The notes under the pieces: model-generated
What the model was told of the DNA's origin: nothing
Databases searched by the model: none
What the model saw: the letters and a program-made list of their open reading frames with translations, nothing else
Made by a program: the position numbers and the translations under genes
Shown here: positions 4,109 to 6,127 of the stretch, one piece after another
Numbering within the stretch: the stretch's first letter is position 1
Layout: every line of letters begins with the position of its first letter
DNA from: a virus
Strand: one strand, 5' to 3'
Length of the DNA: 64,000 nucleotides
Virus record (IMG/VR): IMGVR_UViG_3300008107_000012

Positions 4109-4681
4109 CTAAAGTATAAAGTTAGAAAAGTCCGGTAGTTTCTTATCATCCTTAAGATTACTTTTTTGATTTTTTACTTGTGCCCTTATATTCTCTTTTC
4201 TTTTCTCTAAGTTGATTTCGTTAATGCTTTTATTTTCAATTACTTTGTTTTGACATAGTTTTTCTTCTAATTCACAGTCCATAGAACTAATAAAATCAAT
4301 AAAACTTTCTCTAATCTTTTTATATTCACTTAAAGGAAGTTTTTCAAGTTTCTTTATCTGTGTGTTTTTCCATTCTAAATGAGTTAGAAGATTGCTTTGT
4401 TGTTTTAATAACTCAGCAAAAGTATTATCAATCCATTCATTTATAGAATTGATGGTATTATCTTTAGTTTTCTCTTTTTGATAGATTATATCTTCAGTAT
4501 CACTTTTTGATATTTTTAATATTTCTGTTTTATTTTTAATAATATCTCCAATTCCTTTTTTACGATTGAGATTGAAAGTGGAGATTGAATTGAATTCTTT
4601 TTTAATGTCCTCTATTTGGATATAATCTAATCCATCAACATTAAAGACTTCATTTAACTTTTTACAGTTAAAGTGTTCCAT
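4109..4681 (-). CDS. Orphan Lys/Ile/Glu-rich, probably coiled-coil protein; only credible minus-strand gene
   Basis: 190-aa ORF in very AT-rich DNA with a dedicated late promoter (TATAAATA on - strand, 4708-4715). Confidence 0.7.
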   Translation of the reverse strand: MEHFNCKKLNEVFNVDGLDYIQIEDIKKEFNSISTFNLNRKKGIGDIIKNKTEILKISKSDTEDIIYQKEKTKDNTINSINEWIDNTFAELLKQQSNLLTHLEWKNTQIKKLEKLPLSEYKKIRESFIDFISSMDCELEEKLCQNKVIENKSINEINLEKRKENIRAQVKNQKSNLKDDKKLPDFSNFIL

Positions 4682-4687
4682 ATCTGT

Positions 4688-4787
4688 TCTGTTTGGGTTG
4701 CAGAAGTTATTTATATTAAAGGGAGCAGAGAGAATCTAACTCTGCTCCCCGTCTGTAAAGTGCAACCCAAACAGACATTATATTTAT
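4688..4787 (-). promoter_or_regulatory. Dual late promoters with nested inverted repeats (candidate antisense sRNA and its target 5'UTR)
   Basis: 15-bp IR 4688-4702/4761-4775; 10-bp IR 4721-4730/4740-4749; late boxes at 4708-4715 and 4781-4787. Confidence 0.65.
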
Positions 4788-5013
4788 CAAATACCCAGTA
4801 TTGATAAATATCATAAAACCCTGATAATTGTATATAATTGAATATTAAGTATATAAATAACCGAGTATGAAATACAATAATTAGGATTGAACTTAAAGTA
4901 AATTTCTATTCCAAGAGAGCACAATAGGCAGTTCACCTGATGAGATAAGTCTTTCGCACAGGACAAATAGAAATCTCTGCTACTTTCAGTAATGATTATT
5001 GTTTATAGTATAA

Positions 5014-5330
5014 AAAGTTCATTCGTTATTAGATAATTGATGTATAATATTATCACATAATCATTATATTATAAATTGAATTAAAAGTTCATTCGTGATT
5101 AGATAGATTTCGTATGCTTTCTTATAATAGAAGAGCACTACGCATTATCATCACAAAGTTCATTCGTGATTAGATATGCTTCGTATGAGATTTTCACATA
5201 TAAGCATAGAACAAGATTGACTTTTGTGATTGATTCGTGTATAATAGAATTCGTTTATAAGAATAGACTTTGACCTTTTATAAAGAAGTGTTTATAAGGG
5301 GTTGATTCGTTGTGTCTATGAGTTCGTGTA
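5014..5330. repeat. Array of five ~71-bp-period units; core AAAGTTCATTCGT[T/G]ATTAGATA, degenerating to TTGATTCGT
   Basis: Near-identical 22-mers at 5014, 5084, 5155; TTCGT cores at 5022, 5092, 5163, 5234, 5306. Confidence 0.8.
5217..5245 (+). promoter_or_regulatory. sigma70-type promoter TTGACT-N17-TATAAT
   Basis: Near-consensus boxes, 17-bp spacer. Confidence 0.65.
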
Positions 5331-5341
5331 AGATATAACAC

Positions 5342-5370
5342 TTGACAGGGGATATAATTCCTGGTAGGAT
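5342..5370 (+). promoter_or_regulatory. sigma70-type promoter TTGACA-N17-TAGGAT (extended -10)
   Basis: Consensus -35 and 17-bp spacer upstream of ORF 5403. Confidence 0.65.
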
Positions 5371-5402: not shown

Positions 5403-5570
5403 ATGGCTAGTTCGTACCTCTTAGCACAAAAGAATAAGTATCGTATCACGTTAGAACTTGACGTTCTGGGTGATTTCGACCCTCATCAGATTGATTGGAA
5501 GAAACTCTTTGAACTTGAGCATAATGAATCAGTCAAGAGTTATGTAGAAGACCTCTCTGTGCCCTGGTAA
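5403..5570 (+). CDS. Cyanophage-type hypothetical 55-aa protein (MASSYLLAQKNKYRITLELDVLGDFDPHQIDWKKLFEL...)
   Basis: ORF with its own promoter; below the track cutoff. Confidence 0.7.
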   Translation: MASSYLLAQKNKYRITLELDVLGDFDPHQIDWKKLFELEHNESVKSYVEDLSVPW

Positions 5571-5983
5571 TAGTAATACTATCAGTACTTTCAGTTGATA
5601 TAATTATACTTTGCGTCGTTCTTTATACATTCTTCGTGTCAGTTGTTTAGATTTTATCGACAATGTGCTGGCAGTTGATATAAAGAATGGTGTAAAATAT
5701 AATTATATCGTGGAAATGTTCGTGTTGGCAGTATAAACAACTGCACTGATGTATTATAATACACTAGAAGATGGGGGCAGTTGATGTAAAATAGACGAAT
5801 AACTATACTTTATTCGTTGTCAGTTTGTTATTCGTTATAGCAGTTATTTGATGTTGTTTGTTATTGTTTATATTTTGCGTTGCCGTTGCCCCCCGTATAT
5901 AAAAACCCAAACTACCCTAACCTACAGAGGTGACAAATCGACCTCTAAATATCACTCTCATAAAATTTTTCCGGACCTATAAG

Positions 5984-6127
5984 ATGAAAAGAAAACCCCC
6001 CTATTGGAATTTCTGGAAGGTAGTCTTTGCGGGATGGTTAATACGATATCCTGGAAAAATGTTTAGAATTATCGGAGTCCCCCTCGGAATTCTCATAGTG
6101 GTAATATATAATGCATTGACGAAATAA
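5984..6127 (+). CDS. Small membrane protein (47 aa)
   Basis: Hydrophobic C-terminal helix; late box TAAATA at 5946-5951. Confidence 0.6.
   Translation: MKRKPPYWNFWKVVFAGWLIRYPGKMFRIIGVPLGILIVVIYNALTK

Follow-up and report, generated by a model that had tools for sequence, protein, structure and literature searches.

A phased array of two-part TTCGT sites among the promoters of uncultured T4-like cyanophages, possibly a docking array for a DNA-binding protein

In the DNA analyzed here, a stretch of 64,000 nt (hereafter, the window), a phased row of two-part sites carrying the pentamer TTCGT lies among host-type promoters upstream of a 55-aa gene. We count 41 distinct arrays of this kind, all of them in contigs of uncultured T4-like cyanophages and each with 2-5 regular units. 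The array family is undescribed, and a literature search for the core string returned nothing relevant. The anatomy of the array, its conservation and spacing, its distribution (one locus per genome), and the geometry of the promoters around it are all directly observed. Based on these observations, we tentatively propose, with slightly less than even confidence, that the array is operator-like, that is, a docking array for a putative, probably phage-encoded, sequence-specific DNA-binding protein that would time an early operon.

Genomic setting and anatomy of the array

The window comes from a 95-kb IMG/VR record (completeness estimate, 44%) and is a fragment of an uncultured T4-like cyanomyovirus genome, the nearest cultured relatives of which are the Synechococcus phages S-SM2, Bellamy, S-SCSM1, and SynMITS9220M01. 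The array sits in a 720-nt non-coding gap between a leftward 190-aa ORF (4109-4681) on its left and the rightward 55-aa gene on its right, with gp25, gp6, and a giant gp7-like baseplate protein among the genes downstream. The features referred to below are the following (labels such as L013 denote other loci used for comparison; promoter scores are out of 12).

4930-4960, + strand: relic unit, decayed; by eye, its box 1, linker, and box 2 can be matched to the variant cores of L082 and L014
4968-4996, + strand: weak promoter-like site, TAGAAA-17-AATGAT, with the -10 starting 31 bp before the first TTCGT; relatives have a strong sigma70-type promoter here
5014-5083, + strand: unit 1; the variable position of box 1 (core 5019-5035) is T, and a GTATAAT-type sequence stands in place of box 2
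5084-5154, + strand: unit 2; box 1 TTCGT at 5092, box 2 TTCGT at 5109, and an embedded promoter-like TAGATA (5100)-17-TATAAT (5123-5128)
5100-5128, + strand: the sigma70-type site in unit 2, 10 of 12
5155-5225, + strand: unit 3; box 1 at 5163 and box 2 at 5180
5217-5245, + strand: near-consensus sigma70-type promoter, TTGACT-17-TATAAT, 11 of 12, with the -10 TATAAT (5240-5245) between TTCGT 5234 and 5250
5226-5297, + strand: unit 4; promoter-type; two TTCGT boxes, spaced by 16 bp, flank the -10 box
5298-5341, + strand: unit 5; degenerate and immediately before the last promoter; TTCGT at 5306 and 5323
5342-5370, + strand: proximal promoter of the 55-aa gene, TTGACA-17-TAGGAT, 10 of 12
5403-5570, + strand: 55-aa gene, the constant downstream neighbor of the array; phrog_12516, no assigned function
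5776-5850, + strand: second TTCGT module, after the 55-aa gene; an ACGAA 5795 / TTCGT 5813 inverted pair around a -10-like TATACT (5804-5809), and a further TTCGT at 5831

Each array site consists of two parts, box 1 (a 17-mer, 5089-5105 in the window, with G or T at one position) and box 2 (TTCGTAT). A 22-mer recurs at 5014, 5084, and 5155 with at most one mismatch and occurs nowhere else in the 64 kb (0 copies expected), and the + strand carries nine TTCGT boxes (5022, 5092, 5109, 5163, 5180, 5234, 5250, 5306, and 5323). Pairs of TTCGT spaced 15-19 bp start to start number seven in the window vs. 0.22 expected. An earlier, sequence-only reading of the window had described the three 22-mers, a TTCGT phase with periods of 70, 71, 71, and 72 bp, and a second TTCGT downstream in four units, all of which we confirm, the second box lying 17, 17, 16, and 17 bp away. 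The possible further unit that it placed at 4953 corresponds to the relic unit, which is common to L013 and L021, upstream of their arrays; the unit-1 type of first unit is found in these two as well as in L004 and L026. All array boxes are on the sense strand, the sole exception noted being the inverted ACGAA at 5795 in the downstream module, which is kept after the 55-aa gene in all lineages examined. Tandem Repeats Finder did not call the array because its spacers are unrelated.

Regarding the neighboring genes, the 55-aa gene adjoins the array in every related locus whose fetched piece includes that gene, and is also present in the cultured phages S-SM2, SynMITS9220M01, Bellamy, S-SCSM1, P-TIM68, and S-B05, none of which has the array upstream of it; in these array-less phages, one or two plain TTGACA-17-TATAAT promoters precede the gene. 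Its presence there argues against the 55-aa protein as the specific binder of the array, a role that we further disfavor based on its acidic composition and an AlphaFold model (pLDDT 77) that is almost without secondary structure and uninformative. The sequence-only reading had suggested the adjacent orphan protein as the partner of the array. However, the 190-aa ORF is absent from every related array-bearing locus and hence represents an insertion rather than a partner, which rules it out. The small, basic, membrane-like ORF 5930-6127 probably starts at an internal ATG and then encodes 48 aa, basic at the N-terminus and hydrophobic at the C-terminus; 21 related loci have it beside the array, and the six array-less isolates lack it in the syntenic region. 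As the only neighbor gene restricted to array-bearing phages, it represents a candidate, albeit weak, lead on the binder.

Distribution among phages and prokaryotes

The exact core 19-mer was found in 24 IMG/VR contigs, 22 of which carry the 55-aa gene just downstream; L018 has the same array on a fetched piece that ends at the start of that gene, and L024 is a lone core match outside any array. A motif-independent scan of IMG/VR for two successive TTCGT pairs yielded about 45 further array contigs, while the remaining matches of the scan were unrelated 17-bp tandem repeats. The core is confined to the array in the 95-kb record, and likewise in each of five related records (71-121 kb). In 596 Gb of prokaryote genomes, it gave 41 scattered single matches, at or below a rough chance estimate, none of them titled Synechococcus or Prochlorococcus. 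Hence, the array is a phage-specific, single-locus cis element, and a host transcription-factor site is rejected based on the same lack of enrichment. By eye, the core does not fit the NtcA, Pho-box, LexA, HLR1, Fur, or DnaA consensus.

A few observations from these searches are reported here in their own right. L112 is an unrelated giant-virus fragment, very rich in A+T, that carries three paralogous NCLDV major-capsid genes; at 5662-5989 it contains 19 tandem copies of a 17-bp unit. Fifteen bases of this unit are identical to box 1 (T-variant) plus linker, and its period matches the 17-bp box spacing; the likeness may be coincidental. Unrelated tandem repeats of 17-bp period that start with TTCGT were also seen in L081, L083, L086, L098, L103, and others, several of them in giant-virus bins. 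Among the array-less isolates, L028 (S-SM2; 2240-2300) and L033 (S-SCSM1; 900-925) carry, upstream of the 55-aa gene, a TGTGGAAAA-type word as short direct repeats; this word resembles the reverse complement of the cyanobacterial DnaA box. A conserved GTGATCT...TCTATCA module is found further upstream in array-less isolates, and in L014 and L026 as well.

Conservation of the core, drift of the spacers

A sequence logo of 65 non-redundant units resolves the two-part site. Across the 41 arrays, about 95% of units keep a distance of 17 bp between box 1 and box 2 (TTCGT start to start), a few have 18 bp, and in the variant linker of L082 (and partly of L094) one base has, by eye, been lost and one gained, with the 17 bp kept. 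The array period ranges from 69 to 73 bp, with values clustering at 69-70 and at 72-73 bp. The cores of an array are 0.74-1.00 identical, vs. 0.55-0.62 for its spacers, the latter being the alignment baseline. Unit orthology is traceable between the nearer lineages (e.g., window unit 2 is orthologous to unit 3 of both L013 and L021, and window unit 3 to unit 4 of L013 and unit 6 of L021), and the spacers are unrecognizable in the deeper ones. The latter divergence fits neutral drift because a neighboring 255-aa gene shows a third-codon identity of only 60-73% between lineages. Spacer length is also preserved in spite of indels: unit 2 of L005 vs. that of L006 shows eight gap columns, yet both are 45 nt long. 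That is, the core, the 17-bp internal spacing, and the unit length are kept while the spacers drift; hence, all three are under purifying selection, without spacer turnover of the CRISPR kind.

Comparing relatives for the gain or loss of units, as the sequence-only reading had proposed, revealed one duplication: units 4 and 5 of L021 are identical, representing a recent duplication of a whole unit, spacer included. This event shows that unit duplication occurs and, together with the degenerate last units and the relic, would be compatible with a decaying tandem duplication that has no function of its own. We consider this explanation highly improbable since the core has been kept in 41 distinct arrays while spacers and synonymous sites are near saturation, and the spacing has been kept by compensated indels. 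The earlier reading had named missing transcription, missing protein binding, and missing periodicity in relatives, taken together, as the mark of such decay; within each of the 41 arrays, the period is nearly uniform.

The geometry of the array, i.e., repeats of about 32 nt, unique spacers of 38-41 nt, and a period nearly uniform within each array, is like that of CRISPR arrays, and a processed guide or decoy array was among the possibilities initially raised. Unlike CRISPR arrays and phage repeat mimics, however, the repeats here are degenerate at both ends rather than near-identical along the whole array (box 2 is missing from the first unit, upstream of which a relic lies, and the array ends in two promoter-type units), no hairpin is found in the repeat, and the spacers are inherited vertically and drift, a unit being copied together with its spacer. 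No Cas1 was found in this record or in four related partial records, in agreement with the earlier observation that the window has no cas genes. The search of the spacers against phage genomes that had been suggested gave no convincing protospacer: the AT-rich spacer of unit 1 weakly matches Bacillus phages (E 0.02), and the other two spacers have no match. A CRISPR or guide array is, therefore, rejected based on the degenerate end units, the inherited and drifting spacers, the whole-unit duplication, and the results for Cas1 and protospacers. It is important to note that CRISPR-like geometry can thus arise in a non-CRISPR element, which matters for automated array calling in viral metagenomes.

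Promoters in and around the array

In L004, L005, L026, and L014, a promoter scoring 10-11 of 12 places its -10 box 31-32 bp before the first box of the array; the window, L013, and L021 are without a strong promoter directly upstream of the array. The promoter at 5217-5245 has counterparts scoring 12 of 12 in L013 and L021, in the same place and with the same TTCGT bracketing, and the proximal promoter of the 55-aa gene is kept as TTGAC(A/G)-17-TAnnnT in all lineages and in the cultured relatives. There are 46 promoter-like sites in the 95-kb record, and TTCGT is found in the spacer/start region of the array's two sites and of one other. Hence, TTCGT is a local signal and not part of the general promoter architecture. 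A general promoter class (e.g., a middle-promoter box) is rejected on similar grounds, with the core at one locus per genome and the other promoters without TTCGT. An ECF-sigma promoter was also rejected: despite the likeness of box 2 to CGTATA, no AAC-type -35 lies at the right distance.

Alternatively, the units might form a tandem promoter cluster, each of them binding host RNA polymerase about one polymerase footprint from the next and thereby capturing polymerase early in infection. Three promoter-like sites scoring 10-11 of 12, at 5100, 5217, and 5342, are in line with this idea, as are a -10-like hexamer (at least 5 of 6) located 29-39 bp after box 1 in 40% of the 65 units vs. 17 +/- 5% in spacer shuffles and a TAnnnT between the boxes in 81% of the units of one clade. 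The enrichment of the former, however, seems to come largely from one widely kept unit type, that of window unit 2, and the latter is lost in the L082-type core. Further, the best-conserved bases are not promoter elements, as the core coincides with neither the -35 nor the -10 hexamer; 60% of units are without a good -10 box at the right distance, sigma70-type -35/-10 pairs at 16-18 bp are present in some units rather than in every one, and where these phages have true promoters, the sequence is plain TTGACA-17-TATAAT and the core is absent. A fixed period would also serve no need if the promoters were independent. We regard a promoter cluster as a rather unlikely explanation of the units. The locus is like the tandem early promoters A1-A3 of T7 in that several strong host-type promoters about 117-125 bp apart head an early operon, and unlike them in that the conserved repeat core is no promoter element and is interleaved between the promoters.

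RNA structure and an RNA-level role

The sequence-only reading had assigned each unit its own stem-loop. The stems exist as letters; however, folding better than shuffled sequence is restricted to one or two of the five units. Specifically, whole-unit fold z-scores on the + strand are 0.18, -2.47, -1.64, 0.45, and -0.63 for units 1-5, so that unit 2, and weakly unit 3, beats its shuffles, with unit 2 alone having a significant hairpin. Over 35 units of eight lineages, the mean z-score is -0.8 on the + strand and -0.7 on the - strand, and RNAalifold on 29 aligned units returned no structure, with an energy of 0.0 on both strands. A strong stem in unit 4 of L005 is broken in the L006 orthologue, an Rfam scan matched no family, and a tRNA scan found none. 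A hairpin in every unit is thus rejected based on the fold z-scores and the lack of a structure shared among relatives, and a structured RNA repeat is not supported, there being neither conserved structure or covariation nor an Rfam family, at z-scores near those of shuffles.

Another possibility is an RNA-level element: the array would make up the body of an abundant early leader RNA whose repeated, single-stranded UUCGU pairs attract or sequester an RNA-binding protein or a nuclease (as sponge, stabilizer, or decoy), or which is cut into pieces of about 70 nt. The sense orientation of all array boxes speaks for such an element, as do the upstream promoter of L004, L005, L026, and L014, which would start transcription about 20 nt before unit 1, the occurrence of TTCGT in 5' UTRs of relatives, and the CRISPR-like unit size and geometry. 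On the other hand, the lack of conserved structure, covariation, and Rfam matches weighs against it, the rigid 17-nt spacing and the compensated indel are more typical of duplex recognition, the inverted box of the downstream module would not be the same motif in RNA, and three of the loci, the window included, have no strong promoter directly upstream. Taking both sides together, we consider an RNA-level element unlikely. A particular version of it seems to us more doubtful still: transcribed from a strong upstream early promoter, the array would yield a multivalent leader RNA, the 4-8 UUCGU pairs of which soak up a host RNA-binding factor (a nuclease or a defense protein) in the first minutes of infection. 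If true, such an RNA would act as a non-coding sponge against the host, for which no counterpart has been described in T4-like phages. Overall, recognition of the sites as double-stranded DNA is favored by their rigid two-part geometry and the compensated indel, by the box inversion in the downstream module, and by the absence of RNA structure.

A proposed docking array for a DNA-binding protein

The hypothesis that we favor, i.e., that of an operator-like docking array, is consistent with a short, asymmetric site that is under purifying selection with fixed geometry, and with the position of the sites relative to the promoters, as they bracket the -10 at 5240-5245 and abut the -35 at 5342, and do likewise in relatives. 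From these features we infer protein binding, action on DNA, and an effect on repression or timing, which could proceed as follows. A putative phage-encoded protein would bind the co-oriented two-part sites on double-stranded DNA, within a cluster of strong host-type early promoters that would drive the operon of the 55-aa gene. The strong upstream sites would load the protein first, and the weaker TTCGT pairs, around the -10/start of the internal consensus promoter and abutting the last promoter, would fill thereafter. With these sites filled, the promoters may be silenced or timed, and transcription entering from the promoter upstream of the array may be stopped. HTH_3, RHH_1, and Sigma70_r4 models found no match in five records that are 34-59% complete; the binder may be encoded in unsampled parts of the genomes or be of unknown fold.

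Some features argue against a docking array. At 17 bp start to start, the two direct-repeat boxes do not share one face of the B-DNA helix, an unusual arrangement for a simple dimer, and periods of 69 vs. 72 bp differ by about 100 degrees of twist, meaning that strict same-face cooperativity along the array is not kept. In addition, sense-strand boxes that begin about 20 nt after the start site of a strong promoter, as in some relatives, fit an RNA-level signal equally well. No clear peak at 10-11 bp in A/T periodicity, a sign of DNA wrapping, was found in the spacers.

To our knowledge, how T4-like cyanophages turn off their early genes and progress through the infection program is not understood. 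These phages are without the MotA and AsiA switch of T4 (PMC5780444). The array provides a strongly selected, locus-specific handle on early-gene switching, with its 27-bp core available as bait for the regulator and the promoter cluster available to test that regulator.

Among known systems, the C repressor operators of phage P2 consist of one repeat pair about two helical turns apart that flanks the -10 of the early promoter. The boxes at 5234 and 5250 around TATAAT 5240-5245 are like these direct-repeat half-sites; unlike in P2, the boxes here are 16-17 bp apart, 4-8 pairs stand in a phased row, most pairs are not around a real -10, and a candidate repressor is lacking whereas that of P2 is known. 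The stoperators of mycobacteriophage L5, a temperate phage, are 13-bp asymmetric single sites, bound by gp71, that are oriented with transcription, block elongating polymerase, and are dispersed genome-wide. Here too, asymmetric sites are all oriented with transcription, albeit in one phased array and in a lytic T4-like phage. In centromere-like arrays (the 43-bp sopC repeats of F, R1 parC, and the omega heptads), a short protein site lies within a longer repeat and loading is cooperative, and some of these arrays double as promoters or operators. The tandem organization and the short conserved core embedded in a longer unit are shared with the array described here, which differs in its longer period, its non-identical spacers, the absence of partition genes, and the lytic lifestyle of the phage.

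The last rival explanation is a replication origin, in which the units would be iterons for an initiator or would aid R-loop priming by the transcript of the upstream early promoter, as at T4 origins. The sequence-only reading had proposed iteron-like initiator sites with single-stranded hairpins, and while the hairpins are not supported, binding sites as such are compatible with the asymmetric core, rigid spacing, constant period, and single locus. The evenly spaced direct repeats, present in one copy per genome and next to an early promoter, are indeed like iteron origins and the repeat cluster of T4 oriE, which requires an early promoter and contains repeats at even intervals without a known role (PMC3016281), and the spacers are AT-rich (72% A+T vs. 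about 67% genome-wide), with no distinct unwinding element. Nonetheless, the period of 69-73 bp is far from the approximately 11 or 22 bp of classical iterons, the site is in two parts, and no initiator-like gene or domain is found in the neighboring ORFs. There is also no GC-skew switch, the skew being positive over nearly all of the 95 kb, and the divergent look of the locus is due to the leftward gene, an insertion missing from all relatives. The parallel to T4 oriE is loose, and we reject it, as the T4 repeats are coding repeats spaced by 24 bp inside gene 5. An origin is, in our assessment, fairly improbable.

Additional features flanking the array

Further downstream, the stretch 5570-5930 is a second motif-dense, non-coding region that follows the 55-aa gene. 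It includes three copies of a CAGTTGAT-type motif (5590, 5670, and 5776), from which promoter-like sites at 5675 and 5781 take their -35 boxes, and a 31-nt inverted repeat (5597-5627 / 5679-5709; 84% complementary) with a weak chance match to a plant miRNA model. On the other side of the array, the 5' end of the leftward 190-aa ORF coincides with a long nested hairpin at 4673-4775, made of a 14-bp outer stem and a 10-bp GC-rich inner stem. Finally, a conserved module that the window lacks is found in L005, L004, and L026, some 125 bp before their arrays and flanked by two strong TTGACA-17 promoters (in L005, -574 to -448 relative to the start of the 55-aa gene). This module would give a transcript of about 100 nt with two CCGAAGG-containing, hairpin-like stretches, and is a possible candidate for a small RNA.
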